A DNA stretch of 31,356 nt from Candidatus Dormiibacterota bacterium (GCA_036500885.1 DASYBH010000261.1:1-31356), one strand, 5' to 3'. Shown: positions 6,093 through 25,752, counted from the stretch's first letter. Made by a program: numbers and translations. Notes: generated from the sequence alone by a model not told the origin.

Positions 6093-8210
6093 TCACTCGT
6101 CCCTGGAGATCAGAACGGCGATGCTGTGAGGCTCGACGTGGTACGTGCCGCCCTCGACCGGCACCTCCGTGCCGGCCTCGGCGATGTCGTTCGGTGGGTC
6201 GAGCGCGGTGTCGACCTGTCGATACCATCGCCTTCCCCTGAGGGCGGGGATCTCGAAGTCGAGGGGGTGCTCCTCCATGTTCAGCATGGAGTGCAGGTCG
6301 GGCCCGTCCGCCCTGGCGCCGAGCGTGAACGCGAGGACGCCCGAGGCGCCGTCCCCGAAGCTCGGACAGTGCAGCCGGCAGCCGTGCCACGAGACGTCGG
6401 CCAGGCCGCGGGCGTTGACCTCGCCCGTGAAGAAGCGAGCGCGATGGAGCTCCGCATGGTCGCGCCGGTTGGCGATCGTGCGGCTGAAGAACCGCAGCAG
6501 GCCCGCGTTCGACTCGGTCAGTCGCCAGTCGAACCAGCTCAGCGGGTCGTCGTGACAGTAGGCGTTGTTGTTGCCGAGCTGGGTCCGGCGGACCTCGTCG
6601 CCGGCGACGATCATGGGCACCCCCTGCGAGATCATCAGGATGGTGGCGAAGTTCTTGATCTGACGCACCCGCAGTCGCTCCACGGCCGGATCGGCGGTCT
6701 GTCCCTCGACTCCGCAGTTCCAGCTCAGGTTGTCGTCGACCCCGTCCCGGTTGCCCTCGCCGTTGGCGTCGTTGTGCTTGTGATCGTAGGAGACCAGGTC
6801 GTTGAGCGTGAACCCGTCGTGGGCGGTCACGAAGTTGATGCTGTTGATCGGCAGGCGCCCGCCCGCCTGGTAGATGTCGGAGCTGCCCGCGATGCGGGCC
6901 GCGACGACACCGGTCAGTCCGCGGTCGCCACGCACGAAGCGGCGGATGTCGTCACGGTAGCGCCCGTTCCACTGGGCCCACCGGTAGCCGGGGAAGTAGC
7001 CGACCTGGTACAGCCCCGCGGCGTCCCAGGCCTCGGCGATGATCTTGGTGTCGGCCAGCGTCTCGGTCAGCTCGATGTGCCAGAGGACCGGCGCGTAGGC
7101 CATCGGCGCGCCGTCCAGGCCGCGCGAGAGGATCGACCCCTCGTCGAAGCGGAACCCGTCGACGTGCATCTCGCGCACCCAGTACTCGAGGCACTCCACG
7201 ATCAGCTTCTCGGTGATGGGATGGTTGCAGTTGAGCGTGTTGCCGCAGCCCGAGTAGTCCATGTAGTACTGCTTGTCGTCCTGGACCAGGTGGTAGTAGA
7301 CGTTGTTGGCCAGGCCCTTGTAGTTCATCACCGGCCCCTGGTGGTTCCCCTCGCTCGTGTGGTTGAACACGACGTCCAGGATCACCTCTATACCGGCCCT
7401 GTGCAGGGCCTTGACCATGTCCCGGAACTCCCGCACGTGGGTGCCCTCGGCGGGGCTGACGCAGTAGCGGTCGTGCGGCGCGAAGACGGCCACCGGGCTG
7501 TAGCCCCAGTAGTTGGTCAGCCGCGAGCCGTCGGGGCCCACCCGGTCCAGCTCCATCTCGTCGAACATGAAGACCGGCATGAGCTCGACCGCCGTCACCC
7601 CCAGGCCCTTCAGGTGCGGGATCTTCTCGATCAGGCCCTGGAAGGTTCCCGGGTGCCGCACCCCGGAGGTGGGCGACTTCGTGAATCCCCCGAGGTGCAT
7701 CTCGTAGATCACGGTCTCGTGCATGGGACGGTTGATCGGCTGGTCGCCCTCCCAGTCGTAGTCCCGGATGTCGATCACCGTCGCGCGCATCGACGTCGCG
7801 AGGTTGTCGTCCGGACCGCACGCGTTCCCCCGGTGCCAGAGGTCCTTCGTCAGGCCCCTGGCGTAGGGGTCGACGAGGACCTTGGCCGGATTGAAGCGGT
7901 CGCCCCGGCCGTGCAGGTCGTGCGGGCCCGCGACGCGATAGGCATAGTGCGCGCCGGGCCTGAGGCCGCGGACGTACACGTGCCAGAAGTGGAACGTCTT
8001 GTTGACGTCGGCGTCCAGCTCGATGACCTGGATCGGCACGGGGCTGTCATGGGTGTCGAAGAGCAGCAGCGTCACGCCGCTGGCGCCCTCCGCGTAGATC
8101 GAGAAGTTGACGCCGTCGCTGTCGGGGACCGCCCCGAGCGGGTGGGCGCGGCCGGCGTCCACCGGGTACGTTCCGGCCGCCGGCGCCTGCGGCGCCTGTG
8201 TCTGGACCAT
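6093..8210 (-). CDS. glgX: Glycogen debranching enzyme / isoamylase (GH13)
   Basis: N-terminal HPLGA...GVNFSIYA, region I DVVFNHT, nucleophile DGFRFD, acid/base IAEAWD, and NFVTAHDGFTL. Start is ATG 8210 (alternative GTG 8231). Confidence 0.95.
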   Translation of the reverse strand: MVQTQAPQAPAAGTYPVDAGRAHPLGAVPDSDGVNFSIYAEGASGVTLLLFDTHDSPVPIQVIELDADVNKTFHFWHVYVRGLRPGAHYAYRVAGPHDLHGRGDRFNPAKVLVDPYARGLTKDLWHRGNACGPDDNLATSMRATVIDIRDYDWEGDQPINRPMHETVIYEMHLGGFTKSPTSGVRHPGTFQGLIEKIPHLKGLGVTAVELMPVFMFDEMELDRVGPDGSRLTNYWGYSPVAVFAPHDRYCVSPAEGTHVREFRDMVKALHRAGIEVILDVVFNHTSEGNHQGPVMNYKGLANNVYYHLVQDDKQYYMDYSGCGNTLNCNHPITEKLIVECLEYWVREMHVDGFRFDEGSILSRGLDGAPMAYAPVLWHIELTETLADTKIIAEAWDAAGLYQVGYFPGYRWAQWNGRYRDDIRRFVRGDRGLTGVVAARIAGSSDIYQAGGRLPINSINFVTAHDGFTLNDLVSYDHKHNDANGEGNRDGVDDNLSWNCGVEGQTADPAVERLRVRQIKNFATILMISQGVPMIVAGDEVRRTQLGNNNAYCHDDPLSWFDWRLTESNAGLLRFFSRTIANRRDHAELHRARFFTGEVNARGLADVSWHGCRLHCPSFGDGASGVLAFTLGARADGPDLHSMLNMEEHPLDFEIPALRGRRWYRQVDTALDPPNDIAEAGTEVPVEGGTYHVEPHSIAVLISRDE

Positions 8211-8234
8211 GCCGGCTATCCCAGCTCCCACCGC

Positions 8235-10484
8235 TCAGCTCCCGCCGCCGGTCGCGGTTGGGGTGGGCACCTGGACCTGGGACCGATCGTCGACGACCCT
8301 GACCTCCTCCAGGAAGCCGATGCCCCGAAGCGTGGCCTTGACGTCGTCCGATGCCCCGACCACGTAGATGTCGGTGTCGAGGCTGAGGTCCTGGCAGGTG
8401 AAGGCCAGCGCGCGCGCGCTGGTCCTCGAGATCGACTGGATGTCCTCCATGCGCAGGACGAGCTGCTTCGGCTGTGCCGTGACCACCCGACCGAGGTAGG
8501 TCTTCAACAGCTCCTCGGCGTCCTGCTCGATGGCGCCGTCGAACACCAGTTCGGCGACGCCGTCCGTCAGGTTGAGCAGCATGCCGTAGGTCAGCCCGGC
8601 CGGCGCCAGGCGGATCCTGACCCTGAGCGCCTCGTCCGGGCCCCCGCTCAACAGGCGCGGATTGCCGGCCCACGCCGGACGGTGGCCGCGGGCGGGCCCG
8701 TCGGCGTCGGATCCCGGCGGGAGCTTGATCGTCATGGCCTCCGCGTCGAAGTCGGTCCAGCGCTCGTCGTTGATCCACACCGCCTGCAGCCGCGCGCTGC
8801 CGGGCGGCAGGATGTCCGGCTGCACGCGCAGCACGTTGTCCTCGAAGGCGCCGGGCTTCGGTTTGAAGTAGAAGTCCATCGGCTCCTTCTTGACGAGGAG
8901 GTTGGTGTAGACCGAGGCCAGGTAGCAGAGCTCGAACGAGTGATAGCCGGACATCGAGTGGCTGCCCTTGAGCCGCTCGGTGCCGAGCAGGTAGGGGAGC
9001 CCGTTGGCCAGGACGTTGAAGTAGACGCCGCCCGAATCGTGGTCGGGGAACCAGGCGTTGTAAAAGGCGGCTGACTCGCGGGCCAGGCGCACGTACTCCT
9101 CGTCGCCGAGCGAGCCGGCGAGGATCAGGTAGGCGAGGATGGCCTGCTCCTGCTGCCACCACGCCTTCCGGTCGTGCCAGACCAGTCGATGGAACCGCTG
9201 GCCCTCGGCGCGCGTCCGCTCTATGACGTCGTACCATCCACCCCGCTGCCGGTCCATGCCGGTGTCAGGCATGAGCGCGGCGATCTTGCGGGCCAGCGCC
9301 GGGTACTTGTCGTTCGGCCGCACGTGATGGATGCGCATGAGGTTCCAGGCGATCTTCAGATTGTGGCCCACCACTGCCCGATCCTGCTGCCATCCCCACG
9401 TCCTGTCGGGGCTCCAATCCTCCTGGAACCGCTCCTGCACGTACGGGCTCCGCTCGTAGTCCGGGAAGTGCTCCACGATGGTGTCCGCCAGCGTGGCCAG
9501 GAAGTCGGCGTGACGCTCGTCACCGGTCGCCAGGTACAGGTTGATGAGGTAGGCCGGCGCATGGTCGCCGACCGAGTTCCAGTTCTTGCGGGCTCGATCG
9601 GCGGTGAGCGCCGGAGAGCGGGGATCGAAGTCGACCGGATCGACGTGCGAGAAGTAGCCGCCCCGCACGCGGTCCAGGAAGAACCGATCGAACAGGTTGA
9701 GCGTCATCTCGGCGTCGCTGAGGATCCGCGGGTCCCCCGTCACGCGGTAGGTCTGGATCGGCCCGGCCAGCGCGTAGATCTGCTCGTAGGCGGGGATCGC
9801 GTCGAAGTCGTCTCCGAACTGCGATGCCAGGACCTTGCGCTCGCGTCCTCCGCGGACGTCGACGGCGTGGTACCAGTAGGCGACGCCCTCCGGCTCCTGG
9901 ACCGCTCGCAGGTGGTCGCGCAGGTAGTCGGTGCCCTTCTCCGCGGCCTCCAGGTACCGGTCCTCACCGGTGAGCAGGTATGCCGTGGCGAATCCGTAGA
10001 CCATGCGCGAGATCGTGTCGGTCTCCTGGCGCGTGCTGTCCACCTTCTGGCCCTCGACCGTCAGGTGGGTTCGGTAGTTCCGGTAGTCGATGTCGCCATC
10101 CGGGAACTGCGCCTTCATGTAGAACTCGGCGAGCGCCCGGATCTGCTTGATCCACCAGTCCGGCTCCTCGAATCGGTACTCGCTCGGACCCTGCCCGACG
10201 AGGACGATGTGCTTGGCCTCGAACAGGAGGCCCCCGCCCTCCGGGTAGAAGATCCCGTGCGCGAACAGGTAGCGGCCCGCCACGAGGAGCTCCTCGAGCG
10301 GGCTCGACGGCGACTGGTACGGCTCGTCGAGGTTGCGCAGCACCTCCGCGTACGTGGACGACGTCAGCTGGACGCGGAACTGCCGGCCGTCAGTCGTCTT
10401 CAGCCCGAACGCGCGACTCGTGCGATCGAAGTCGAGTACGTAACCGGCGATGGTGTCCGAGAATGTGAAGTCCAGATCATCCAT
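8235..10484 (-). CDS. AGE/cellobiose-2-epimerase family (alpha/alpha)6 protein with N-terminal extra domain and C-terminal STAS domain
   Basis: AGE-fold motifs SRMVYGF (R160), NSVGDH (H308), GHNLKIAW (H374), WWQQEQ and GYH (H515). Residues about 633-733 (LVFDGAIE...LVLRMEDIQSIS...VKATLRGIGF) are STAS-like. Confidence 0.85.
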   Translation of the reverse strand: MDDLDFTFSDTIAGYVLDFDRTSRAFGLKTTDGRQFRVQLTSSTYAEVLRNLDEPYQSPSSPLEELLVAGRYLFAHGIFYPEGGGLLFEAKHIVLVGQGPSEYRFEEPDWWIKQIRALAEFYMKAQFPDGDIDYRNYRTHLTVEGQKVDSTRQETDTISRMVYGFATAYLLTGEDRYLEAAEKGTDYLRDHLRAVQEPEGVAYWYHAVDVRGGRERKVLASQFGDDFDAIPAYEQIYALAGPIQTYRVTGDPRILSDAEMTLNLFDRFFLDRVRGGYFSHVDPVDFDPRSPALTADRARKNWNSVGDHAPAYLINLYLATGDERHADFLATLADTIVEHFPDYERSPYVQERFQEDWSPDRTWGWQQDRAVVGHNLKIAWNLMRIHHVRPNDKYPALARKIAALMPDTGMDRQRGGWYDVIERTRAEGQRFHRLVWHDRKAWWQQEQAILAYLILAGSLGDEEYVRLARESAAFYNAWFPDHDSGGVYFNVLANGLPYLLGTERLKGSHSMSGYHSFELCYLASVYTNLLVKKEPMDFYFKPKPGAFEDNVLRVQPDILPPGSARLQAVWINDERWTDFDAEAMTIKLPPGSDADGPARGHRPAWAGNPRLLSGGPDEALRVRIRLAPAGLTYGMLLNLTDGVAELVFDGAIEQDAEELLKTYLGRVVTAQPKQLVLRMEDIQSISRTSARALAFTCQDLSLDTDIYVVGASDDVKATLRGIGFLEEVRVVDDRSQVQVPTPTATGGGS

Positions 10485-10638
10485 TGCTCACTCCACGTTT
10501 CCTGCTCACAGGAACATCGTCGATCCACATGCATCATCAGGCAAACCGCTCAGCTTCCCTCTGAGCATAGCTCACTGTCACGGCATGCTCAAGTCAGCCA
10601 ACGGCACACTGTGAAGAGGAACGGCCGTTGAAGTTGGG

Positions 10639-10792
10639 TGCAGCACGAAGTCACGAAGAGCACGAAGACGCACGAAGAGATTCGAGGTCAGCCTCAGCGC
10701 TCTGGCTGACCCAGACCCCTCCATTCCTTCGTGCGTCTTCGTGTCCTTCGTGGCTCCGTGCTGCAACTCATTCAGCTAATCGCCCGCCCGAA
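10639..10792. repeat. CACGAAG-unit long-hairpin repeat (REP/MITE-like), copy 1
   Basis: Imperfect 39-bp inverted repeat (10639-10677 / 10727-10765) built of four CACG(A/G)AG units around a 49-nt spacer. A homologous copy lies at 25840-25990. Confidence 0.9.
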
Positions 10793-10857
10793 AGCTCACA
10801 GCCTTTCGCCAGGGCACTCCACGTCATCGGAAGCACTCCTCGTTGGCGCTGGGTCCG

Positions 10858-11859
10858 TCAGGCGCCTACCGCGAGCTCCTCGTTCTCGTCGTTCTGTGCG
10901 AGGAGGTGGCGCAGCGCGTTGGCCTGCGAGCGACGTCGAACCTCTTCGGCGAAGTCGTTCAGCCACTGCAGCGCCGGCTCGAGCGCCGGCATGCCCGGTC
11001 CCGTTTCCACGGAAGCCTGGACCGCGGTCTCGGCCGCGTCTGGCATGCTCGCAAGGCACTCCAGAGCCGTGCGGAGGCGGTCCAGGTCGGGCCGGCGAAT
11101 GCTCAGCCCGGGGCCCTGGAGCGGCCGGCGCCTGGCGTCCCGCGACGCGCGGGCGCGGGTGCGGGCCTGTCTGACGACGTCCCCGACGATGTGGCGCGCG
11201 TGCGCTTCGGGATTGCTGCCGGCGCGATCGCGGATGCTCCTGGTGACCTCGCTCAGGTAGGGCTTGATCTGGCCTGCGACGTACGCGGATATGTCCGGAA
11301 TCTCGGACATGCCAGCCGCGAGCTGGAGCTCGGCGATCACGCGGCCCTGGTCGAGGAGCTCGTATGACCGGCTCCGGCTCAGGCCGAACTCCTGCTTGGC
11401 GTACCGCTCCCACGTCCGGTATCCGAGCGCCGACCATGCGCGCCCCTCGTGGGCCTCCATGAGGAGCAGGCAGACGTGCCGGGTCGCACTCCGGATTCGC
11501 TCGGTGAGGGCTCTCGCGCCAGCCTCGTTCAACGGCCGGCCGTTTCCCGCGCGGGATGCGGGCCGGACGGGCGCTCCCTGCGCCGGCGTCATGGACCGGG
11601 CCGCGTGGTCCCTGCGAGGCCGCGTCATCGGCAGGTCTGACCGCGCCGCTCCGAGGTACGGCGCCTGCTCGGTGAACACCGCTTCGATCGCATCGCAGAT
11701 CGACATGCCGGGTGTGACAGCCGCGACGTGCGGCCGGAGCTTCGCTGCCACAGGCGCCGGCACCGCAACCTCCCCCTGCTGGTGGTAGTCCTCCAGCACG
11801 TGGAGACAGCCGTCCAGCAAGCGCAGCTTCTCTCGGCGCTCGTTTCGGTCGTGATGCAC
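10858..11859 (-). CDS. Hypothetical DNA-binding protein with phage-like HTH (WSALGYRTWERYAKQEFGLSRSRSYELLD)
   Basis: GTG start with GGAG upstream and GC3-biased codons. The central helical segment resembles uncharacterised phage/prophage HTH proteins (recalled resemblance, not searched). The N-terminal ~70-aa domain is unknown. Confidence 0.7.
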   Translation of the reverse strand: MHHDRNERREKLRLLDGCLHVLEDYHQQGEVAVPAPVAAKLRPHVAAVTPGMSICDAIEAVFTEQAPYLGAARSDLPMTRPRRDHAARSMTPAQGAPVRPASRAGNGRPLNEAGARALTERIRSATRHVCLLLMEAHEGRAWSALGYRTWERYAKQEFGLSRSRSYELLDQGRVIAELQLAAGMSEIPDISAYVAGQIKPYLSEVTRSIRDRAGSNPEAHARHIVGDVVRQARTRARASRDARRRPLQGPGLSIRRPDLDRLRTALECLASMPDAAETAVQASVETGPGMPALEPALQWLNDFAEEVRRRSQANALRHLLAQNDENEELAVGA

Positions 11860-11983
11860 TCTTGGCCTTCTCCCAGATCAGTGCACGGTGGTTCACCAGT
11901 CCCCCGCCGCAGCGTTCCCCCGTGAGCCGTTACTCGCCGCGACAGCTCGAACGGCAGGCGGGGCCGCTCGGCCAGGGGGCGCC

Positions 11984-12223
11984 TCACCTCTCGTGCGCTC
12001 CCCCGCTCGTCCGCCGCCGCGTTATCGGGACATGAAGCGTTCGGTGCGCGGGACGCGGCACCAGGTCGGGACGCGAAGCGTCCCAATCGCTGCCGGCCGC
12101 CTCGACGCGCTGCGCCGCGCCCGGCTCGTCCGGCGCGACGGGCCACGGTCCGTACGGAGCCTCCGCCACCAGTCCCAGCCAGACTGCGTATCCTGTCGTC
12201 GCCGCCGCCTCCGTCTCGCTCAT
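11984..12223 (-). CDS. Small hypothetical protein, 79 aa (MSETEAAATTGYAVWLGLVAEAPYGPWPV...)
   Basis: Strong Shine-Dalgarno GAAAGGAGG 7 nt before ATG 12223, GC3-rich codons, and same strand directly upstream of the HTH gene. Confidence 0.55.
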   Translation of the reverse strand: MSETEAAATTGYAVWLGLVAEAPYGPWPVAPDEPGAAQRVEAAGSDWDASRPDLVPRPAHRTLHVPITRRRTSGGAHER

Positions 12224-12680
12224 CGGGGCGCCTCCTTTCTCGTGGTCCCGCGGCCCAGCTCGATTGGCCGAGCTCGAGCGGACGAGTGACATTGTCAGCG
12301 GACAGATGGGGGCGATGGTACTGGCGATAACTCCAGTTTTCTCCTAGGCGCTTCGCGCAGGTAATCGCCTACGCATTCGCATCGGATCGCGGGCGCCGGC
12401 ATCCATTGGCCCGTTCGCAGCGCACGGGAAACCGTGGCGCGGCATCGTCTCTGACCGCCAGGCCGAGCAGGATCGGGTTCCTCCGCAGACACTTTCTTTA
12501 CGATTGATTCTTAGTGTTGCTGGCTGCGGCAGCAGTGAATCTCGTTGACCATGCACCAATCTATCGCGGCGGTGACAGATCGGCGGCCTTGACGCTCGGT
12601 GATCGGCTCTGACAACGTTGTGGAGGTGTGGGTCGTGCGGACAGATCCTTTTCCGGAATGACGATGCAGGGCAGCGGGGC

Positions 12681-12696
12681 GTCCGGAATTCCGGAC
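12681..12696. promoter_or_regulatory. Perfect 16-bp palindrome GTCCGGAATTCCGGAC, candidate operator
   Basis: Self-complementary and 38 nt upstream of the LAL ATG. A half-site TCCGGAAT lies 30 bp upstream (12652), and there is a 16/18 match inside the HTH gene at 11293-11310. Confidence 0.6.
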
Positions 12697-16478: not shown

Positions 16479-16555
16479 TGAGTAATCGGGCCGGCAACAC
16501 GGCGGTTGTGTGGGTAGAGCCTACTCAGGATCGTCGATCGGTCGCGGGCTAACGT
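16479..16555 (+). promoter_or_regulatory. Activator-dependent promoter candidate for the DJ-1/ABM-VOC/ferritin-like operon
   Basis: TGAGTAATC (16479), a 7-3-7 inverted repeat TGGGTAG-AGC-CTACTCA (16511-16527), then 22 nt to -10 TAACGT (16550-16555). The same layout recurs at 22613-22687. Confidence 0.7.
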
Positions 16556-16643: not shown

Positions 16644-17390
16644 ATGGCAGAGATCAAGTCGATCGCGGTCGTGGGCTACAAGAACGCCAGCGAGCAGGAC
16701 ACCATCACCCCGCTGGAGATCTTCCGGGGTGCGAAGCTCGTGCTGGGTGACCAGATCGCTCCGTGGAAGCGCGCGGACGGCCCGCGGCAGCTGGACGTCA
16801 AGCTCGTCTCGATGGAGCCCGGCAACATCACGATGCAGACGGGTACGCAGGTGGTGCCAGACGCCGTGCTCGGCGACCACGACCTGTTCGACATCTTCTA
16901 CGTCCCGGGCGGCGTCGGATCCGGCGCGATGACGCAGAACCACAAGCTCATCAACGCGATCAAGCGACACCACTCCGCCGGCAAGGTGATCGGCGCCAAC
17001 TGCTCGGGCGTCGGCGTCCTGCACCGGGCGGGGATCCTGGGCAAGACGCAGGTGACGGCGGTCGCCGCGGTCGTGCGCGGAATGCGCGCGGAGGGGACCA
17101 ACGTTCCACAGCCGCGGCGGATGTGGGAGGGCGACCCGGAGCGGGGCATCTGGACGGCCACCGGCTCGTACGGCATCAACGGCGCCACCGTGGCGATGGT
17201 GGCCCATTACTTCGGTCGCGAGGTCGGGACGATCGTTTCGATGATGTTCGACACGTACGGTGGGGTCGGCGAGCACATCTACGAGCTGCGCGGGCCCGAG
17301 TTCTACTACCACCCGGACCTGGAGCCCAAGTTCCAGGACTACTTCGAGCCCATGCTGCTTCCCAAGCCGAAGCAGGAAGCGCACAGGTGA
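16644..17390 (+). CDS. DJ-1/PfpI family protein (isonitrile hydratase InhA-like subgroup)
   Basis: SEQDTITPLEIF, FDIFYVPGG, nucleophile elbow ANCSG (C120) and WTATGSYGING. GAGGAGG ribosome-binding site. Confidence 0.85.
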   Translation: MAEIKSIAVVGYKNASEQDTITPLEIFRGAKLVLGDQIAPWKRADGPRQLDVKLVSMEPGNITMQTGTQVVPDAVLGDHDLFDIFYVPGGVGSGAMTQNHKLINAIKRHHSAGKVIGANCSGVGVLHRAGILGKTQVTAVAAVVRGMRAEGTNVPQPRRMWEGDPERGIWTATGSYGINGATVAMVAHYFGREVGTIVSMMFDTYGGVGEHIYELRGPEFYYHPDLEPKFQDYFEPMLLPKPKQEAHR

Positions 17391-18163
17391 TCACGGTAAC
17401 GGCAGTACAGCACGTCAAGCCGGGCAAGGAAGGCGACGTCGAAACGCTGATGCGGGACCTCACGACCAGGGTCAGGGCCAACGAACCGGGCTGCGTGACC
17501 TTCGACTACGTTCGCTCGAACGACAACGAGCACACCTACCTGGTCATCGAGCAGTACGCCGACGAGGCGGCGTTCGGTCAGCACAGGACGACGCAGTACC
17601 TGCAGGACTTCATTCCGCACCTGCTGGAGTGCCTGCGGAAGCCGCCCGAGGTCGTGACGTATCGAGACGTGCTGCCGGCGCCGCCATCCGCTCAGTCCTA
17701 CTTCCACGCGGGAGTGGTGGTCCCGGACCTGGAACGAGCCGTGGCGTGCTACTCCGACGTGCTGGGCATCCGGTTCACCGAGCCGGCTACGTTCGACGTT
17801 CCGCGGCTCGAGGACCCCCATCCGCACCACTTCGAGCTGGTGTGCGCGTTCTCGATGACCGCGCCACCGTACTACGAACTGATCCAGGCCAATGGCGACG
17901 GGATCATCTCCGTCGCCAACGCCGGCAGGATCCTCTACTTCGGCATCTGGGAACCCGACATGGCCGGCCGGCTGGAGCGCCTGCGGCAGCGGGGCGTCGG
18001 CGTCGATGCCCTGTTCCGCATGGACGCCACCTCACCGCCCTTCGCGCTGATCACCGCGCCGGACCTGCTGGGCGCGCGGATCGAGTACGTCGACGTGAGC
18101 GACAGGGAACCGATCGAAGAGTGGGTTCGGACCGGCAAGTTTCCTGGCGGGATCGGGGGTTAG
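17387..18163 (+). CDS. ABM (quinol monooxygenase-like) - VOC/glyoxalase fusion protein, 258 aa
   Basis: GTG start overlaps the upstream TGA. N-terminus VKPGKEGD...EPGCVTFDY...YLVIEQYADEAAFGQHRTT is ABM-like. C-terminus YFHAGVVVPDLERAV...YYELIQ...RIEYV is VOC-like. Confidence 0.85.
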   Translation: MITVTAVQHVKPGKEGDVETLMRDLTTRVRANEPGCVTFDYVRSNDNEHTYLVIEQYADEAAFGQHRTTQYLQDFIPHLLECLRKPPEVVTYRDVLPAPPSAQSYFHAGVVVPDLERAVACYSDVLGIRFTEPATFDVPRLEDPHPHHFELVCAFSMTAPPYYELIQANGDGIISVANAGRILYFGIWEPDMAGRLERLRQRGVGVDALFRMDATSPPFALITAPDLLGARIEYVDVSDREPIEEWVRTGKFPGGIGG

Positions 18164-18302: not shown

Positions 18303-19466
18303 ATGTCCGTCGTCGTGGACCAGATCGCAACTGAACCCGCCAACCGGGACATCGCCTGGCTGCACGAGGCGCTCCAGTCGGCGATCGCCCTGGAACACTC
18401 GACGCTGCCGCTGTACCTCGCCGCGATGTTCTCGCTGGAGGTGCAGAACTACCCGACCTACAACGCCATCCGCAGCGTGGTCATGGAGGAGATGGTGCAC
18501 ATGGCCATCGCCGCCAACATGCTGGCGGCGATCGGGGGCTCGCCCCGCATCAAGGACCTCGATCCCGGCTACCCGTGTCACGGTCTGCCCGGCGGCGCCG
18601 AGCCGGACCTGCAGGCCGGCCTGGCCAGGCTCTCCCCGCGGCAGCTGCAGAACTTCATGCGCCTGGAGGCGCCCCTCTTCCTGCTGCCGGAGAAGCACCG
18701 CAAGGAGGGCTACCCGACGATCGGCCGGCTCTACACCGCGATCAAGGAGGCCATCGTCGCCAACGCGGACGCCGTGAGGGAGGCGTTCACGGCCGGTGGC
18801 ACTGCCAACCAGGTGGGGGACAACATCGGGTTCACCACGATCAGCCCAACGCCCGGCATCGATCCGGTCGACCTGCTCGACCGGGCCATCGACGAGATCC
18901 TCGCCCAGGGTGAGGGATCGACCTCGGGCACCATCCAGGCGGGACCCGAGTACGAGAACGAGGAGTCGCACTACGGCAAGTTCGCCGAGCTGTGGTACGG
19001 CGCGCGGTACCAGGAACCGAACCCGCCGGTGCCGCTGAACCGCAAGAACGAGGCGCAGTTCTTCAAGGGCACGAAGATCACCTGGCCGGTCGTCGTCAAC
19101 ACGCTCGCGGTGCCCGCCGACGGGTACGCGCGCATCCTGGCGCGCGATCCGAACGGCCAGGCGGTGTCCAGGGACCTCACGGCCTTCGACACCGTGTACA
19201 CGGGGATCATGGCCCAGCTGGACGCCATGTGGAACGGTCCGGTCGACACCCTGTGGCCGACGTTCGGCGAGGCCGTGAAGGGCATGACCGACCTTCGGGT
19301 CCTGTCCTGCTTCAACATCATGCGGTACCACGTGCCGGCCCCGGTGATCGCGGAGCTGCCACGTCTCTACCCTGACGAGTACCCGTTCCTGTCGACATAC
19401 ACCGATCTCGACAAGCCGGTCTTCTACGGCCCGCGCTTCCGCAATCTGGCGGCCGCGAGCCAGTAG
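18303..19466 (+). CDS. Ferritin-like domain protein (VioB/RebD-type Ferritin-like family, standalone)
   Basis: LQSAIALEHSTLPLYLAAMFSL, VVMEEMVHMAIAANMLAAIGGSP, QGEG and ESHYGKF motifs. AAAGGAGG ribosome-binding site. Confidence 0.85.
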   Translation: MSVVVDQIATEPANRDIAWLHEALQSAIALEHSTLPLYLAAMFSLEVQNYPTYNAIRSVVMEEMVHMAIAANMLAAIGGSPRIKDLDPGYPCHGLPGGAEPDLQAGLARLSPRQLQNFMRLEAPLFLLPEKHRKEGYPTIGRLYTAIKEAIVANADAVREAFTAGGTANQVGDNIGFTTISPTPGIDPVDLLDRAIDEILAQGEGSTSGTIQAGPEYENEESHYGKFAELWYGARYQEPNPPVPLNRKNEAQFFKGTKITWPVVVNTLAVPADGYARILARDPNGQAVSRDLTAFDTVYTGIMAQLDAMWNGPVDTLWPTFGEAVKGMTDLRVLSCFNIMRYHVPAPVIAELPRLYPDEYPFLSTYTDLDKPVFYGPRFRNLAAASQ

Positions 19467-19670: not shown

Positions 19671-20351
19671 ATGAGAAAGCGCGTCTACTATCACCATATC
19701 GCTGGGCACAGCATCGAGCGATTGGGCGCCCTGAGCGATGGCATCTTCGCAGTTGCCATGACGCTGCTCGTACTCGACGTCCACGTTCCCGCCGGCGAAG
19801 CGCTCCACTCGCTGGCGCGGGTCCAGGCGCTGTGGGCGGCTGGCTCGCTGGTGCCGGACCAGGCGCTCTGGAGCGCCCTTGGCGGACTGGCGCCGAACGT
19901 GCTCGCGTACCTGTTGAGCTTTCTGACCCTCGGCATGTTCTGGGTCGGCCATCAGACGCAGCTCAGCCACTTCAAGCGCAGCAATCGCTATCTCACCTGG
20001 ATCCACCTCGCGTTCCTGTTCGGGGTGTCGCTGATGCCGTTCTCGACGGGTCTGCTGGCCGCGTTCATCACGTTCCGGGTCGCCCTGGTGCTGTACTGGC
20101 TCAACCTCCTCTTCCTCGGGTTCACGCTCATCGCCAGCTGGCGGTACGCGGAGCGTGCGGGATTGGTCAACGAGGAGACGACCGACGACCTGCGCCATGC
20201 GCTGCAGCGGCGCATCGTGATCGCGCAGACCCTCTACGCGATCGCGGTGGCATTCTGTGTCATCAACACCTACGTCAGCATCACCATCCTCGTCCTGCTG
20301 CAGCTGAACTCCGCCATCGCGCCGCGGATATTCCCACTCGATCGCTTCTGA
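19671..20351 (+). CDS. TMEM175 family (DUF1211) membrane protein, putative K+ channel
   Basis: N-terminal signature ERLGALSDGIFAVAMTLLVLDV, FWVGHQ, LMPFSTGLL, and about six hydrophobic helices. Confidence 0.9.
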   Translation: MRKRVYYHHIAGHSIERLGALSDGIFAVAMTLLVLDVHVPAGEALHSLARVQALWAAGSLVPDQALWSALGGLAPNVLAYLLSFLTLGMFWVGHQTQLSHFKRSNRYLTWIHLAFLFGVSLMPFSTGLLAAFITFRVALVLYWLNLLFLGFTLIASWRYAERAGLVNEETTDDLRHALQRRIVIAQTLYAIAVAFCVINTYVSITILVLLQLNSAIAPRIFPLDRF

Positions 20352-20360
20352 CGGCGGTGA

Positions 20361-22376
20361 TCAGTCGCTGCTCGAGAGTCGGGCTCCCAGCTGCCGCAGG
20401 AAGCGGTCCCACTGCTCATGGAACTCTGGCGAGTCGGGCGCGTGGCCCGTGGTCATGCGTGTGATCTGGGGCAGCAGCTGCGGGCAGTGGGTGAGCGCGA
20501 AGGCCATCAGCCGCAGCGCGGCGGCGTCGAACTCGGGGTCGATGAGACGCTCCCGCTGCCGGTCCCGGACCTCCGCCACCTGGCGATCGATCACCGCGCG
20601 CCGCTCGGTCTCGTGCGGGATCGGACCGCCGGCGCCCACGACGAGCGCCTCCTCGAGCAGGTATCGGTGCCAGGTCGGGCTGTGTCCGGGGTGCTCGAAC
20701 TGGTGCACCAGGAACTCACCCGTCTCGCGCGGCGTCTCCTCGACCTGGAGCGCTCCGAGTGAGGCCTCGTGGTGCAGGGTCTCGGCCATGTGGTGCCGAA
20801 GGATGTGCTCCATCAGGTGATCGCCGGCGCGCCCGCCCGTCGCGAAGTAGAACGAGTGCACCAGGCCGTGGAGGTGGCTGGGCGCCCGCTCCAGGAAGAC
20901 GTTCGACCTCGCGACGGGAGCAGGGCGTGGCAGCAGGAAGACGAGGAGGAGCAACAGGATCGCGAGCCCGGCCAGCAGGGGCAGGGTGACCTGGTACGCG
21001 AACAGGTAGCGGGTCGCATGCGACGTGCCGGCCGGCTCGGCGCCCACGGCGAGGAAGAACACCATGCCCACCAGTGCGATGCCGAGCGTCTGCCCGAGCT
21101 GGAACGAGGTCGTCAGGGCTCCGGCCGCGGCTCCGGTGTCCTCCGGCCGGATCCCGGAGAGCACGGCGCCGATCAACGTCGAGACGGCGAGCCCCTGGCC
21201 GGTGCCGACGATGAGCAGGGCGGGCGCGAGCGTCCAGACGGTCAGGCCGGTGCCCGCGGCGTGCACGCTGGCGAGGATCGCCAGCATGCCGGCCAGCAGG
21301 ATGACGTATCCCAGGCTCAGGACGTGCCGTCCCAGTCCGGGGACCAGCCGCGGCGCCACGAGCGAGGCGAAGAAGAAGGCGACCCCTGAGGGCGCCGAGG
21401 CGAGGCCGGCCTGCAGCGCTGTGAAGCCCAGGCCGATCTGGAGGGTCACGGACGTGTAGACGAAGAAGCCGAGGGCGGTGACGAAGTACACCAGGCCGAT
21501 CGCGATCCCCGTGGCGAACGCCCTCTGTCGAAACAGCCCCAGCGTGAGCAGCGGATGCCCGCCCGTTCGCTCGACGCGCCCCTCGTACCAGACGAAGAGG
21601 GCGAAGACCGGGAACGAGGCCACCAGCATCGCCACCAGCCAGAGCGGCCAGCCGGCCTCGCGGCCGATGAGGAGCGGAAGGATCAGGAGCGCCAGCGCGG
21701 CGCCGAGGATGACGGTGCCGCCGTAGTCGAGCGTGGGCCGCCCCTCGGAGCGCGTGTCGCTCATGACGACGGCCGCGGCGACGAGGGCCGCCGTGCTGAC
21801 CGGCGCGAGGACCAGCATCGCCGGCCGCCACGCCAGTCCGCCGAGGTCGAGCTGGATGAGGACTCCCCCGATCAGCTGGCCGGCCACCAGCGCGACCCCG
21901 ATCGTCGCGCCGAACAGGCCGAGCGCGAGGCTGCGCTCCCCGCCCTCGAAGGTCTCCTCGATGATCGAGAGGATCTGCGGGTAGAGGAGAGCGGAGCCGA
22001 ATCCCTGGAGCACCCTCGCGCCGATCAGCGTCGTGGCGTTGGGAGCCAGGCCGCCCGCGACCAGCCCGATCGTGATGATGGCCAGGCCCGCCATCAGCAC
22101 GCGCTTTCGCCCCACGATGTCGCCCAGCCGCCCGCCGGCGATGAGGAAGATCGCGTAGACGAGCGTGTAGGCGGCGACGACCAGCTCGATCTCACCGAAG
22201 CTGGCGTTCAGCGTGCGCTGCATGGACGGCATGGCCAGGTTGACGATCGAGACGCCACCGATCACGAGGAACGTGCCGGTCAGAGCGACCGCGAGCACCA
22301 ACCAGCGCCGGTGGTCTGTCGCGTGGGCCGGTCTGGCCATCTGCGTGCGCTTCTCTCGGTCGGCGACCTGGATCAC
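20361..22376 (-). CDS. DHA2-type MFS exporter (14 TM) fused to a C-terminal TetR-like ligand-binding domain, 671 aa
   Basis: GTG 22376 follows GAGGAGG. Motif A GGRLGDIVGRKR, ARVLQGFGSA, motif C GQLIGG and LDYGG. The soluble tail (about 180 aa; LIDPEFDAAALRLMAFAL...PQITRMTTG...PEFHEQW) resembles a TetR C-terminal domain. Confidence 0.88.
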   Translation of the reverse strand: MIQVADREKRTQMARPAHATDHRRWLVLAVALTGTFLVIGGVSIVNLAMPSMQRTLNASFGEIELVVAAYTLVYAIFLIAGGRLGDIVGRKRVLMAGLAIITIGLVAGGLAPNATTLIGARVLQGFGSALLYPQILSIIEETFEGGERSLALGLFGATIGVALVAGQLIGGVLIQLDLGGLAWRPAMLVLAPVSTAALVAAAVVMSDTRSEGRPTLDYGGTVILGAALALLILPLLIGREAGWPLWLVAMLVASFPVFALFVWYEGRVERTGGHPLLTLGLFRQRAFATGIAIGLVYFVTALGFFVYTSVTLQIGLGFTALQAGLASAPSGVAFFFASLVAPRLVPGLGRHVLSLGYVILLAGMLAILASVHAAGTGLTVWTLAPALLIVGTGQGLAVSTLIGAVLSGIRPEDTGAAAGALTTSFQLGQTLGIALVGMVFFLAVGAEPAGTSHATRYLFAYQVTLPLLAGLAILLLLLVFLLPRPAPVARSNVFLERAPSHLHGLVHSFYFATGGRAGDHLMEHILRHHMAETLHHEASLGALQVEETPRETGEFLVHQFEHPGHSPTWHRYLLEEALVVGAGGPIPHETERRAVIDRQVAEVRDRQRERLIDPEFDAAALRLMAFALTHCPQLLPQITRMTTGHAPDSPEFHEQWDRFLRQLGARLSSSD

Positions 22377-22568
22377 GGACGTCCTCCTCAACCCCCCGGA
22401 TGACAGCGGGACCGTTCGAGCGTAACCACCTGAGCACGCGTCGACAGTTCTCCAGTCAACGCATCGCACCGCTGACGTGTCGAGCCGGACGCCCCGGCCG
22501 TGCCAGTGCGCCCAGGATACGATACGAGCCCCTTCCCCCGCCCCCCCGGGGACGTCACACCGGCGTTC

Positions 22569-22687
22569 TGAGTAGCGCGCTCCGGGCGCATCCGCAGCCA
22601 TCGGCCGAGATGTGAGTAATCCACCTGCCGATCCGGCTTTCCGCCGGCCAGCCTACTCAAGACGGTCGACCCCCGGACGGATACGTT
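22569..22687 (+). promoter_or_regulatory. Activator-dependent promoter candidate for the GMC/SnoaL/DJ-1/KSI operon (divergent from MFS)
   Basis: TGAGTAG (22569), TGAGTAATC (22613) and AGCCTACTCA (ends 22659), then 22 nt to -10 TACGTT (22682-22687). Confidence 0.7.
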
Positions 22688-22773
22688 GCGGATGCCGGAC
22701 GGACTCGCGACGCCCGGCGACGAACGCTCAGCTTCAGCAGTCGCGGCGATCGTCTTGAGTGGAGAGGAAACAC

Positions 22774-24282
22774 ATGAAGTACGACCACATCGTAGTTGGG
22801 GGCGGCTCGACCGGCGCGGTCCTTGCGACCCGGCTCTCTGAGGATCCGGGCTGCTCCGTCCTCCTGCTGGAGGCGGGCCCGGACTTTCCCGAGGTCGAAC
22901 AGCTCCCCGAGGACATCGCCAACGCGCGGACCGTCTCTGTGGAGAAGCACGACTGGGGCTACACCGCCGAGGCCGTGCCCGGGCGCACGATGGAGTATGC
23001 CCGCGGCAAGGTGACCGGCGGCTGCTCGGCCATCAACGGCGCGATCGCGCTGCGGGGGATCCCGGCCGACTTCGAGGAGTGGGCCGCGTGGGGGAACGAC
23101 GAGTGGGCGTGGGAGAAGGTCCTGCCCTACTTCATCAAGATCGAGGACGACCAGGACGAGGAGGGCCCGTACCACGGCAAGGGCGGTCCGACGCCGATCG
23201 TCCGCTGGCGCGACCACGAGCTCGTGCCTCTTCAGAAGGCGTACCTGGAGGCCTGCCTGGCACAGGGCTTCGCCTACGTCGCGGACCACAACGACCCCCG
23301 CAGCTCCGGCGTCGGGCCGATTCCCATGAACCGGTGCGGGAACCTGCGCGTCTCCTCGGCGGTCGCCTACCTGGGCCAGGCGCGGGAGCGCCTGAACCTG
23401 ACCATCCGGCCGGGTGCGCTCGTGAACCGCGTCCTCTTCGACGGGACGCGCGCGACCGGCGTCGAGGTGGAGGCCGGCGGACAGGTGCAGAGCATCTACG
23501 GCGAGAACATCACGCTGTCGCTCGGCGCGCTCAACACCCCGGCCGTGCTGCTGCGCTCGGGTGTGGGGCCGAGGGCCGAGCTCCGAAGGCTGGGAATCAA
23601 GCAGGTGCTCGACCAGCCCCACGTCGGGGCCAACCTGATCGAGCACCAGCAGATCACCGTCGGCATCGTGCCCAAGGCCAACGTCACGAGCCTCGACGAC
23701 CCGGACGTGCAGATCATCGTCCGGTACACCTCACCCGGCACGAACCAGGAAAACAACATGCAGATGTACTTCGTCAGCCGCTATGTGCCGATCACGCACC
23801 GGCCGATCAGCGTCATGAGCGTGCTGCAGAAGCCGAAGTGCCGGGGCAAGGTCTCCATCAAGACCGTGGACCCGCACAAGCAGCCGGACATCTTCCTGAA
23901 CTCCTACGGCGAGCCGGAGGACAGGCAGATCGCGCTGGAGGGCGTGCGGCTGTGCTGGGAGGTCGCCAGGTCGAAGCCGGTCCAGGACCTCGCCGCGGGG
24001 ATGGCGGACACGCTGACGCCGGAGCAGGTGAAGAACGACAAGGCGCTGCTCGAGTACGTCAAGGAGCACTCCGCGACCCTGTGGCACCCGGTCGGCACCT
24101 GCAAGATGGGCCCCAGCAGCGACTCCACGGCGGTGGTCGACCAGTACTGCCACGTGCACGGCCTGGACAACCTGCGGGTCGCCGACGCCTCCGTGATGCC
24201 CAACCACGTCAGCGGAAACCCGAACCTCACCTGCTTCGTGATCGGCGAGCGAGTGGCCGACTGGGCGAAGAAGGGCCTGTAG
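22774..24282 (+). CDS. GMC family FAD-dependent oxidoreductase (choline dehydrogenase/alcohol oxidase-like)
   Basis: MKYDHIVVGGGSTG, LLLEAGPD, ARGKVTGGCSAING, WHPVGTCKMG, LRVADASVMP and GNPN (His/Asn catalytic pair). GAGAGG ribosome-binding site. Confidence 0.95.
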   Translation: MKYDHIVVGGGSTGAVLATRLSEDPGCSVLLLEAGPDFPEVEQLPEDIANARTVSVEKHDWGYTAEAVPGRTMEYARGKVTGGCSAINGAIALRGIPADFEEWAAWGNDEWAWEKVLPYFIKIEDDQDEEGPYHGKGGPTPIVRWRDHELVPLQKAYLEACLAQGFAYVADHNDPRSSGVGPIPMNRCGNLRVSSAVAYLGQARERLNLTIRPGALVNRVLFDGTRATGVEVEAGGQVQSIYGENITLSLGALNTPAVLLRSGVGPRAELRRLGIKQVLDQPHVGANLIEHQQITVGIVPKANVTSLDDPDVQIIVRYTSPGTNQENNMQMYFVSRYVPITHRPISVMSVLQKPKCRGKVSIKTVDPHKQPDIFLNSYGEPEDRQIALEGVRLCWEVARSKPVQDLAAGMADTLTPEQVKNDKALLEYVKEHSATLWHPVGTCKMGPSSDSTAVVDQYCHVHGLDNLRVADASVMPNHVSGNPNLTCFVIGERVADWAKKGL

Positions 24283-24323: not shown

Positions 24324-24740
24324 ATGATTGGAGACGGAACCAGGCTGGTGCACCTGTACTACGAGAAGTTCCTCACGACCCCGGGAGACCTGGACGTGGC
24401 GGACCAGATCCTCGCGACGGACGTGGTCTTCCACAACCCGATCTCACCCGACGGCATCCATGGCATCGACCAGTACAAGCAGTTCGCGCTCCGCTGGTAT
24501 CGCGGCTTCCCGGATCGCAGGTTCAAGGTCGAGGACACGGTCGAGGAGGGGAGCAAGGTCGCCGCCCTGTTCACCATCACCGGCACGCACAACGGTGAGT
24601 TCGCGGGCGCGGCGCCGACCGGGCACCACATCCAGGTGCACGGCATGAACATCTTCCGCATCGAGAAGGGGAAGATCAAGGACGTCAAGGCGTTCTTCAA
24701 CCCGCTGGAGCTGTACCAGCCGATCGGTGTGAAGCTGTGA
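24324..24740 (+). CDS. SnoaL-like ester cyclase / NTF2-fold protein, 138 aa
   Basis: YRGFPDRRFKVEDTVEEGSKVAALFTITGTHNGEFAGAAPTG...FRIEKGKI matches the ester cyclase pattern. AAGGAG ribosome-binding site before ATG 24324. Confidence 0.9.
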   Translation: MIGDGTRLVHLYYEKFLTTPGDLDVADQILATDVVFHNPISPDGIHGIDQYKQFALRWYRGFPDRRFKVEDTVEEGSKVAALFTITGTHNGEFAGAAPTGHHIQVHGMNIFRIEKGKIKDVKAFFNPLELYQPIGVKL

Positions 24741-25366
24741 CGTCTCCGTCCCCGTTCAAGGGCAGGATCGGGGTGCTCGTCGAGGACCACTTCGACCAGA
24801 CCGAGTACCGGATGTTCAACGAGTACTTCCCGGAGCAGGGATACGAGGTGGAGTACCTCTCCCACCTGTGGGGCCAGAGGCAACTGACGTTCGGCGGCAA
24901 TCCCGACAGCGGCGTCGTCGAAGAGCACGTGACAGTCACGACCGAGGTGCAGGACCTCGATCCCGCGGACTACAAGGGCATCATCCTGATCGGCGCCTAC
25001 GCCATGGACCGGCTGCGCTACCAGGAGCACGTCCACAGGGGTGGGAAGAACACCGCTCCCGCGGTCGACTTCCTGCGCAGGGCGCTGAGCACCAACGGTG
25101 TCAAGATCGGTACGATCTGCCACTCCCTGTGGCTGCTGTGCGCCGACCCCGATCTCATTCGCGGCCGGCAGGTGACGTGCGCCCACAACATCGTGTGCGA
25201 TGTGGAGAACGCCGGCGGCGAGGTGATCTACTCCGGGGACGGGACCGCGGAGGTCGTGGTCGATGGCAACCTGGTCTCGGCCAAGCATCCCGCCGTGACG
25301 GACCGGTTCATGGCCCGCTTCGTGCAGGAGATCGAGCGGGCTCCGGTGGGAGTGCAAGGAGGGTAG
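24737..25366 (+). CDS. DJ-1/PfpI family protein (PfpI-like, Cys-His dyad)
   Basis: IGVLVEDHFDQTEY, YKGIILIG, AMDRLR, nucleophile TICHS and VVVDGNLVSAKHP. GTGA overlap with the upstream gene. Confidence 0.9.
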   Translation: MTSPSPFKGRIGVLVEDHFDQTEYRMFNEYFPEQGYEVEYLSHLWGQRQLTFGGNPDSGVVEEHVTVTTEVQDLDPADYKGIILIGAYAMDRLRYQEHVHRGGKNTAPAVDFLRRALSTNGVKIGTICHSLWLLCADPDLIRGRQVTCAHNIVCDVENAGGEVIYSGDGTAEVVVDGNLVSAKHPAVTDRFMARFVQEIERAPVGVQGG

Positions 25367-25368
25367 AC

Positions 25369-25752
25369 ATGCCTGAAGCCGCGCAGATTCGCAAGGCGGT
25401 CGAGACGTACGTCCAGAGCTTCAACACGAAGGACAAGCACGCGTTCCTGAGCGTGTTCGCGGAGGGCGTCCAGCAGATCGATCCCGTCGGCTCGAAGCCC
25501 AACGTGGGCAAGCACAAGCTGGCGGCGTTCTGGGACACCCTCTTCAGCCAGGTCGAGAAGATCGACTTTCGCGTCACCGACCTGTTCATCACCGGCGACG
25601 AGGCGGCCCTGCTGTTCCACATCACGCAGTCGAAGAAGGACGGGGACGTCGTGGTCGACGGGGTCGACGTCTTCCAGGTGAACGACGCGGGCCACATCAC
25701 GCTGATCAAGGGCTACTCGGACGCGAACCACGTCAGGTCGAACTCTCACTGA
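25369..25752 (+). CDS. Ketosteroid-isomerase-like NTF2/SnoaL protein, 127 aa
   Basis: Y14, D38 (DPVG) and D100 (VDVF) align with the KSI catalytic Tyr14/Asp38/Asp99. AAGGAGG ribosome-binding site. Confidence 0.85.
   Translation: MPEAAQIRKAVETYVQSFNTKDKHAFLSVFAEGVQQIDPVGSKPNVGKHKLAAFWDTLFSQVEKIDFRVTDLFITGDEAALLFHITQSKKDGDVVVDGVDVFQVNDAGHITLIKGYSDANHVRSNSH

Follow-up and report, generated by a model that had tools for sequence, protein, structure and literature searches.

In a metagenome-assembled genome (MAG) of a soil bacterium of Candidatus Dormiibacterota, positions 6093–25752 of one contig hold a set of genes centred on a GlgX2-type isoamylase, an AGE-family epimerase-like enzyme fused to a STAS domain (AGE-STAS) and a DJ-1 protein of the YhbO/PfpI type (DJ1b). 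We regard it as very probable that they form a genuine conserved cluster of the icfG type, known from Synechocystis. With moderate confidence we further favour the reading that they are one conserved, horizontally shared cluster, a kinase-less and enlarged actinobacterial form of the icfG type, operating along the lines of the working model given below. The window analysed is the whole 31,356-bp contig (C261; about 70% G+C), from a soil-metagenome MAG of 3.95 Mb in 537 contigs that is 87% complete. Genes were called from third-position G+C (GC3) and frame plots, families were assigned by Pfam and NCBIfam, and paralogues in the MAG were sought by tblastn with the window proteins.

Conservation of the cluster across phyla

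At E<1e-10, over 4,500 database proteins are related to AGE-STAS, the best 120 being 62–85% identical to it. At least 573 loci with an AGE homologue were confirmed in GTDB species representatives, and neighbours were counted within 9–10 kb of the AGE gene for the best 80 of these, one genome per GTDB species. The 80 loci come from Actinomycetota, Chloroflexota, Cyanobacteria, Planctomycetota, Chlorobiaceae, several proteobacterial classes (including the glycogen accumulator Competibacter), Acidobacteriota, Spirochaetia and others. Their gene orders are stereotyped and mostly follow one strand. The neighbours were found in the following numbers of loci:

GlgX-type gene (median 62% identity): 77 of 80
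DJ1b: 57–58 of 80
VOC protein: 28 of 80
Benzoylformate-decarboxylase (BFDC)-like thiamine pyrophosphate (TPP) enzyme: 26 of 80
ThiJ-like protein: 25 of 80
GMC oxidoreductase: 21 of 80
Uncharacterised protein of 149 aa: 21 of 80
Free STAS protein, where the AGE protein has no STAS domain: 20 of 80
SnoaL protein: 17–18 of 80
GAF-PP2C phosphatase: 17 of 80
RsbW-type kinase: 15 of 80
TMEM175 channel protein: 6 of 80 (and, in addition, Actinoplanes)
Type III polyketide synthase (PKS), monooxygenase, zinc alcohol dehydrogenase (Zn-ADH) or acyl-CoA dehydrogenase (ACAD) homologues of the window: 0 of 80

The core triad of AGE(-STAS), GlgX2-type isoamylase and YhbO/PfpI-type DJ-1 spans more than ten phyla, with a GMC oxidase and NTF2/SnoaL proteins as frequent companions. 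Neighbourhoods of AGE, DJ-1, GlgX and STAS genes in cyanobacteria and actinobacteria, mentioned in an earlier note written from the DNA alone, are indeed seen among these related loci.

In the window, the genes and promoter elements of the cluster are laid out as follows:

6093–8231, minus strand: GlgX2-type isoamylase/debranching enzyme (CBM48 and GH13 by Pfam; above the TIGR02100 cut-off)
8235–10484, minus strand: AGE-STAS (PF07221 3e-21, STAS 7e-7, Pfam)
12735–15404, plus strand: MalT-type large ATP-binding LuxR (LAL) regulator (AAA_16, TPR and GerE, Pfam)
15548–16180, minus strand: small LuxR/GerE-type regulator, divergent from the DJ1a operon (GerE 4e-18)
16479–16527, plus strand: dyad operator candidate TGAGTAATC-N30-AGCCTACTCA, 5′ of the DJ1a operon (motif search)
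16644–17390, plus strand: DJ-1/PfpI-superfamily protein DJ1a (Pfam; weak PDB matches to InhA and DJ-1D)
17387–18163, plus strand: ABM-VOC fusion (Pfam)
18303–19466, plus strand: PF12902 ferritin-like protein with a diiron-carboxylate motif (Pfam)
19671–20351, plus strand: TMEM175-type channel protein (Pfam, 3.6e-24)
20361–22601, minus strand: DHA2-like major facilitator superfamily (MFS) transporter with a weak TetR_C-like tail (Pfam; TIGR00711 4e-36, below its cut-off)
22613–22659, plus strand: second dyad copy TGAGTAATC-N28-AGCCTACTCA, 5′ of the GMC operon (motif search)
22759–24282, plus strand: GMC flavoprotein oxidoreductase (Pfam)
24324–24740, plus strand: SnoaL (NTF2-fold) protein (Pfam)
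24737–25366, plus strand: YhbO/PfpI-type DJ-1, DJ1b (Pfam)
25369–25752, plus strand: SnoaL_2 (NTF2-fold) protein (Pfam; orthologues in Pseudonocardia, Actinoplanes and Streptomyces)

All domains named by the earlier note are thus present between 6093 and 25752 by Pfam and NCBIfam. The translational coupling through GTGA that it described was found at 17387–17390 (DJ1a/ABM-VOC) and at 24737–24740 (SnoaL/DJ1b); AGE-STAS and glgX are separated by a 3-nt gap and do not overlap. Besides the core, GMC and NTF2 genes, the window carries an add-on made of DJ1a, ABM-VOC, the diiron-motif ferritin-like protein, the MFS transporter, TMEM175 and the LAL and LuxR regulators.

The earlier note had proposed co-occurrence in other genomes of the left-hand genes (glgX, AGE) and the right-hand genes (DJ-1, GMC, SnoaL) as the check on a single cluster, and such co-occurrence was found in Pseudonocardia, Actinoplanes and Streptomyces. 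A Pseudonocardia MAG (L014) has LAL and, divergent from it, AGE-STAS, GlgX, GMC, SnoaL, DJ1b and SnoaL2 in a single row, each 58–73% (overall about 70%) identical to its window counterpart. Nearly all of the window's cluster genes are gathered in one place in Actinoplanes and Streptomyces. In Actinoplanes subtropicus (L012), SnoaL2-DJ1b-SnoaL-GMC, a GlgC-like gene, LAL, AGE-STAS-GlgX, TMEM175, DJ1a-ABM-VOC-ferritin-like and MFS lie within 22 kb. Streptomyces sp. NBC_01304 (L095) has DJ1a, ABM-VOC, GMC, SnoaL, DJ1b, SnoaL2, LtrA, AGE, STAS and GlgX in one string, with MFS and ferritin-like genes divergent, and the same gene set occurs on a 44-kb metagenome contig (L094), where ABM and VOC are separate genes. 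Chance juxtaposition of unrelated operons would agree with the presence of at least four transcription units on both strands and of two non-conserved genes (10858–12292) in the middle of the range, but it is contradicted by the synteny across phyla and by the single-operon versions of Pseudonocardia and Streptomyces, and we hold it to be extremely improbable. The proposal that the genes are a conserved functional neighbourhood and not a chance row is borne out by this synteny and by the Pseudonocardia operon.

Searching the MAG by tblastn revealed two further core loci, so that it carries three paralogous AGE-STAS/GlgX/DJ1b loci in all. One (contig C472) has a LAL gene on the minus strand followed by GlgX, AGE-STAS, DJ1b and DUF6176. 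The other appears to be a single locus split between contigs C92 and C66, with the break falling within the AGE gene, and reads ThiJ-like, BFDC-like TPP enzyme, DJ1b, GlgX, AGE-STAS, GMC, EthD, Nif11, GMC. Each of the three loci is of a different architectural type, and every DJ1b-type gene of the assembly sits in one of them.

A GlgC-like NTP-transferase of the ADP-glucose pyrophosphorylase type, absent from the window, stands beside the cluster in A. subtropicus (5667–6992), in a close metagenomic relative (L011, 11217–12464) and in Streptomyces sp. NBC_01304 (20291–21167). This neighbour is a further tie to alpha-glucan metabolism.

Relation to the icfG operon and to kinase-less operons

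The earlier note had called the cluster undescribed, but its core is that of the icfG-type cluster known from the Synechocystis operon slr1852–1862 (PMC8670252, PMC12329169). That operon comprises Slr1855 (annotated as 'N-acetylglucosamine 2-epimerase'), the STAS protein Slr1856, a GlgX and IcfG (PMC8670252). Slr1861 is the kinase for Slr1856 and Slr1859, IcfG dephosphorylates Slr1856, and the operon has been proposed as a carbon-regulation hub (PMC12329169, which cites Beuf 1994, Shi 1999 and Gonzalez 2001 for the icfG cluster). We found no literature on the function of Slr1855.

In both systems the AGE-like gene (slr1855 in Synechocystis) adjoins a gene for an isoamylase-type GlgX2 (Slr1857) and STAS modules, and a DJ-1 gene belongs to the set: it lies 5′ in the icfG type, and DJ1b accompanies the pair in the window. 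The order CMD-DJ1-AGE-STAS-GlgX-STAS-kinase/PP2C, shared by at least 20 cyanobacterial and other loci, matches slr1853–1861, and the window proteins are 54–66% identical to those of the cyanobacterial loci; that they are orthologues of the Synechocystis proteins themselves is judged from gene order and from annotations in the papers cited, a search for PF07221 in 14 control genomes having given no Synechocystis match. Unlike the icfG operon, the window has no RsbW-type kinase or PP2C domain in any of its genes by Pfam, and tblastn with six representatives of each found none in the MAG, which is 87% complete. Its STAS domain is fused to the enzyme and carries Arg at the phospho-serine position, so that no STAS with a phosphorylatable serine is found in the window, and it has LAL and LuxR regulators, GMC and SnoaL genes, and the DJ1a/ABM-VOC/ferritin-like/MFS add-on. 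In this variant the LAL/LuxR regulators stand in for the kinase/phosphatase switch.

The window also resembles kinase-less operons of the form ThiJ-like, TPP enzyme, SnoaL2, GMC, DJ-1, VOC, GlgX, AGE-STAS, which occur in Chloroflexota, Chlorobiaceae, Planctomycetota, Proteobacteria and others. The core triad, GMC and NTF2 proteins are common to both, and the MAG's own C92/C66 locus has this form. The window differs from them in having no BFDC-like TPP enzyme, ThiJ-like protein or 149-aa protein, and in possessing a different second DJ-1, the ABM-VOC fusion and the ferritin-like/MFS pair.

The debranching enzyme and AGE-STAS

The window GlgX scored 693.6 bits against the NCBIfam equivalog TIGR02100 (cut-off 640.9), and its best PDB matches are plant ISA1 and Sulfolobus TreX. 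Its catalytic residues D363, E400 and D472 are kept, and GH13 regions I–IV and the triad are intact in all cluster-type GlgX proteins. In a phylogenetic tree the cluster-type enzymes form a clade far from the canonical GlgX of the MAG, which is encoded beside MalQ on another contig (C522; 43% identity); the clade carries the signatures FRFDEGS and AEAWD, the canonical copy FRFDLA and AEPWD. The three cluster copies of the MAG fall into three subclades, that of the window grouping with Actinoplanes and Pseudonocardia, which points to old paralogy or separate transfers and not to recent duplication. Canonical GlgX/MalQ glycogen catabolism shares with the window the full GH13 triad, and the maltodextrin system of E. 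coli MalT, the LAL prototype, shares a LAL gene divergent from an operon of alpha-glucan enzymes. Unlike these systems, the window GlgX belongs to its own clade and the cluster has no MalP, MalQ or maltodextrin transporter.

An AlphaFold2 model of AGE-STAS (pLDDT 84, pTM 0.86) predicts an N-terminal beta domain (residues ~10–95), an (alpha/alpha)6 barrel (~110–531), a beta-sandwich and a C-terminal STAS domain (~640–731). The top Foldseek matches of the model are Runella glucose 2-epimerase and cellobiose 2-epimerases (9e-18 to 8H1N), and the barrel is also near mannose isomerase and YihS. Compared with the known AGE epimerases and isomerases (Runella 8H1K, cellobiose 2-epimerase 3WKF, mannose isomerase, YihS), the barrel reaches TM-scores of 0.70–0.81 by target and retains the Arg, three His and Trp. 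Identity is nonetheless 13–22%, the window protein adds the N-terminal beta domain, the beta-sandwich and STAS, and an invariant K377 stands in place of Glu, as does E518 in place of Arg. Invariant positions comprise R160, H308, H374, W380, W442/443 and H515 together with the unusual K377 and E518, H374 and H515 being invariant in 41 sequences. The protein scored 27–30 bits against the NCBIfam AGE and cellobiose 2-epimerase (CE) equivalogs, whose cut-offs are 600–800, and by curated model it was not assigned to a characterised subfamily (AGE, CE, ME, YihS).

The STAS domain is homologous to the free STAS proteins of other loci (6e-15). At the acceptor position the alignment shows Arg (SISRTSAR) where the free proteins have Ser (YMSSAGLR), so the fused STAS cannot be phosphorylated. 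Our reading is that it is either a relic of the partner-switch control of cyanobacteria or a docking module belonging to it.

Regulators and a shared promoter dyad

The earlier note had pointed to a promoter motif shared by two operons. We located it as TGAGTAATC-N28/30-AGCCTACTCA at 16479–16527 and 22613–22659. The dyad TGAGTA-N35-TACTCA marks cluster promoters. No matches are expected by chance (zero in 100 shuffles), and the two window promoters are the only sites in the 3.95-Mb assembly. A looser pattern, searched among 96 fetched loci, occurred only in the LAL/AGE intergenic region of Actinoplanes and in the LuxR/ferritin-like intergenic region of the 44-kb contig. This distribution supports one regulon, and we infer the LAL and/or LuxR protein to be the dyad binder. 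LAL orthologues 46–54% identical to that of the window are divergent from AGE-STAS in Pseudonocardia and Actinoplanes, a second LAL gene is divergent from the paralogous glgX on C472, and a GerE protein occupies the equivalent place beside the dyad on the 44-kb contig.

Of the three DNA-binding proteins announced by the earlier note, LAL and the small LuxR protein were verified; the third candidate (10858–11859) matches neither a helix-turn-helix nor any other model of Pfam or NCBIfam. A scan for sigma-70 promoters and terminators gave results at chance level, and the terms of a paper on the SigF regulon of M. smegmatis proved unrelated to the cluster. Directly 3′ of the glgX stop lies a G+C-rich hairpin (6059–6080) at which, judging from sequence, transcription of the AGE-STAS/glgX unit probably ends. 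A perfect 14-bp palindrome, TCCGGAATTCCGGA, lies at 12682–12695, about 40 nt 5′ of the LAL start, and is a candidate auto-regulatory site.

Accessory proteins of the cluster

In DJ1b, C128-H129 is conserved in 100% of 58 sequences and E16 in 96%. The protein scored 84.9 bits against TIGR01382, below the cut-off of 139, and so represents a divergent subfamily; many cyanobacterial loci, and Competibacter too, encode an orthologous DJ-1 protein (53–73% identical) directly 5′ of AGE. DJ1a has orthologues in the Actinoplanes and Streptomyces clusters. The ABM-VOC protein occurs as the identical fusion in the same two clusters, and its ABM domain is weakly LsrG-like, below the curated cut-off. By PDB search, GMC is nearest to hydroxymethylfurfural (HMF) oxidase and choline oxidase.

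The ferritin-like protein has the invariant residues E31, E63xxH66, E204 and E220xxH223, which make up a diiron-carboxylate pattern. No function for it emerged from searches of PDB and NCBIfam, and the sole structural relative of its AlphaFold2 model (pLDDT 85.5) is the uncharacterised 3HL1. Among 400 genomes of the window's phylum we obtained 4 weak matches to this orthologue, and it was not found in 60 relatives or in 150 other genomes of the Actinoplanes order; a Burkholderia homologue lies in an unrelated gene context. Accordingly, we regard the add-on as rare and as moving together with the core in a few Actinomycetota. PDB entry 3FSE is a solved protein that joins a DJ-1/PfpI domain to a ferritin-like domain; as a possible Rosetta-stone case, this fusion may hint at cooperation between the DJ-1 and ferritin-like genes of the actinobacterial add-on.

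The MFS gene adjoins the ferritin-like gene in Actinoplanes, in Streptomyces and on the 44-kb contig. In its predicted 746-aa open reading frame (ORF), about 100 aa precede the MFS domain, and residues 640–721 form a weak, putative TetR_C_21-like region (E ~1e-3). Ion channels (TMEM175, bestrophin-like, LtrA) recur near core loci.

Flanking genes and repeat elements

Outside the range, the following genes adjoin the cluster (Pfam):

2304–5922, minus strand: three-subunit Mo-hydroxylase (Fer2, FAD-binding and MoCo subunits; CoxSML/xanthine-dehydrogenase type), directly 3′ of glgX
26121–27287: FAD monooxygenase, right of the range
27293–28483: type III PKS, right of the range

The statement that the cluster has no PKS core holds inside the range; the type III PKS and the FAD monooxygenase lie just to its right. 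The right-hand genes (GMC, SnoaL, DJ-1, SnoaL_2, ABM-VOC, MFS, LAL) could thus be imagined as tailoring, export and regulatory functions of this PKS, which most resembles Pks11 of M. tuberculosis and THNS of S. coelicolor and, with the monooxygenase, is 0.4–1.5 kb away. Genes for SnoaL, ABM, MFS and LAL proteins are common in polyketide clusters. The conservation data argue strongly against such a link: PKS, monooxygenase, Zn-ADH and ACAD homologues were missing from all 80 related loci and from the Actinoplanes, Streptomyces, Pseudonocardia and 44-kb-contig clusters. G+C rises from 0.64 to 0.77 at 26 kb, and a repeat element found genome-wide stands between the two units. The type III PKS was accordingly rejected as the missing core, and we consider the reading very improbable. 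An automatic caller of biosynthetic gene clusters would probably merge the PKS pair with the cluster.

The Mo-hydroxylase is a possible accessory unit of the icfG-type cluster. It also stands beside AGE/GlgX in five other loci (L011, the close metagenomic relative, and L013, L018, L019 and L021, from Dictyobacter, Ktedonobacteraceae and Chloroflexota); its family has at least 12 paralogues in the MAG, and adjacency by chance is thus possible.

Two non-conserved ORFs (333 and 102 aa) at 10858–12292 separate the AGE-STAS operon from the LAL gene. The neighbours of the larger protein (10858–11859) in the ESM Atlas are hypothetical and phage- or plasmid-like (DUF3102-type), and no homologue of it was found in the 80 related loci. 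Hairpin elements of about 150 bp, with 39–40-nt arms of CACGAAG repeats, lie at 10630–10803 and 25828–26001. This family resembles miniature inverted-repeat transposable elements (MITE) or repetitive extragenic palindromes (REP) and has many tens of copies across the MAG, one of them just 3′ of the paralogous cluster on C472 (11958–12127). Many copies are at contig ends, where they probably contribute to the fragmented assembly. The idea that the two window copies bracket a mobile block was ruled out, the element being repeated genome-wide; the two ORFs and the adjoining element may be an insertion.

A working model and its alternatives

In the working model, the LAL and/or LuxR regulator would turn the operons on. 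The GH13 enzyme, with its intact triad, would free malto-oligosaccharides with reducing ends from an alpha-glucan, and the AGE barrel, which keeps the His pair for C2 proton transfer, would epimerise or isomerise the reducing-end glucose. AGE-type enzymes work on free reducing sugars by such a transfer, and debranching creates such ends; we infer the linkage between the two. The GMC flavin oxidase would then oxidise the AGE product to a reactive (di)carbonyl sugar, to be converted by the Cys-His DJ-1, VOC, ABM and NTF2 enzymes, and in the actinobacterial variant the MFS transporter may export the product. This specific chain of release, isomerisation, oxidation and carbonyl conversion, with optional export, appears chemically coherent, but in this exact form we give it a low probability.

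Several observations weigh against it. The family-specific changes in the AGE site (E to K377 and R to E518) suggest that its chemistry may differ from that of known epimerases. GMC resembles alcohol, HMF and choline oxidases rather than known sugar oxidases, the accompanying TPP enzyme of other loci is benzoylformate-decarboxylase-like, so that non-sugar substrates are possible, and no orthology was detectable between DJ1a or the window VOC domain and the widespread operon's ThiJ-like and VOC genes. According to a 2025 preprint, Synechocystis GlgX2 (Slr1857) did not debranch glycogen in vitro, its knockout had no phenotype and its function was described as 'elusive' (bioRxiv 10.1101/2022.11.21.517384); something other than ordinary glycogen may therefore be the substrate. 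Finally, no RNA run containing the window was found, the sole run that holds the stretch being the DNA run of the source soil metagenome.

The second model of the earlier note, a stress-induced system for glycogen mobilisation and carbonyl detoxification, can be framed as a co-regulated stress kit with no shared pathway, in which glycogen mobilisation (GlgX, AGE) and generic detoxification of carbonyls and electrophiles (DJ-1, VOC, ABM, NTF2, GMC) stay together only through being required under one and the same stress. The closest proteins to DJ1b are the stress protein YhbO and the PfpI deglycases. Cyanobacteria and other phyla have STAS/RsbW/PP2C partner-switch genes interspersed with the core, a link between the icfG operon and carbon-status signalling is on record (PMC12329169) and the recurring ion channels point the same way. 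A fixed order and tight coupling of 8–10 enzymes across more than ten phyla are, however, more typical of consecutive steps. Besides, Synechocystis GlgX2 is dispensable for bulk glycogen mobilisation (bioRxiv 10.1101/2022.11.21.517384) and the MAG holds its separate canonical GlgX beside MalQ. We judge this explanation rather unlikely.

The first model of the earlier note, an exported sugar-derived specialised metabolite made by a route like that of anhydrofructose and ascopyrone, fares less well. In its favour are the MFS gene beside the ferritin-like gene in the actinobacterial variant, the ABM, SnoaL, GMC and diiron-motif proteins, which are typical tailoring folds, and the patchy, transfer-like distribution of the add-on. 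The likeness to the fungal and algal pathway, from storage glucan to reactive keto-sugars, is conceptual only: the GH31 alpha-1,4-glucan lyase that defines it was found in no window gene by Pfam, a dehydratase is likewise not present in the window, and GlgX keeps the hydrolytic GH13 residues. The literal anhydrofructose-like route was rejected on the missing GH31 domain. Moreover, most of the 80 loci have no exporter, its conservation being confined to the actinobacterial variant, and the core is found in photoautotrophs together with signalling genes. A specialised metabolite of this kind is quite improbable, and the stress-kit model would fit the distribution and the partner-switch link better.

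For the icfG-type cluster as a whole, a more far-reaching proposal can be made. A specialised isoamylase and the AGE enzyme might turn the reducing ends of oligosaccharides from alpha-glucan into keto- or osone-type sugars that an oxidase, DJ-1/VOC-type glyoxalases and NTF2/ABM proteins process along an undescribed route, with a BFDC-like decarboxylase in some lineages and the diiron-motif protein in Actinomycetota; the route might end in a defined acid, in a shortened sugar or in a product for export. We regard this proposal as doubtful.

Implications

The icfG locus has been known for carbon regulation since the 1990s. The widespread occurrence of the core implies that a piece of carbohydrate or carbonyl metabolism is absent from current maps. 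For genome mining, the window cautions that SnoaL, ABM, GMC, MFS and LAL genes beside a type III PKS need not be its tailoring genes. The actinobacterial variant offers handles on the system, as it has no kinase/phosphatase layer, a dedicated LAL, a LuxR regulator with a candidate operator and a possible exporter, and culturable equivalents exist in Actinoplanes subtropicus NRRL B-24665 and Streptomyces sp. NBC_01304. If true, the undescribed route would add a new branch to glycogen metabolism in hundreds of species and would account for the orphan GlgX2 and Slr1855.

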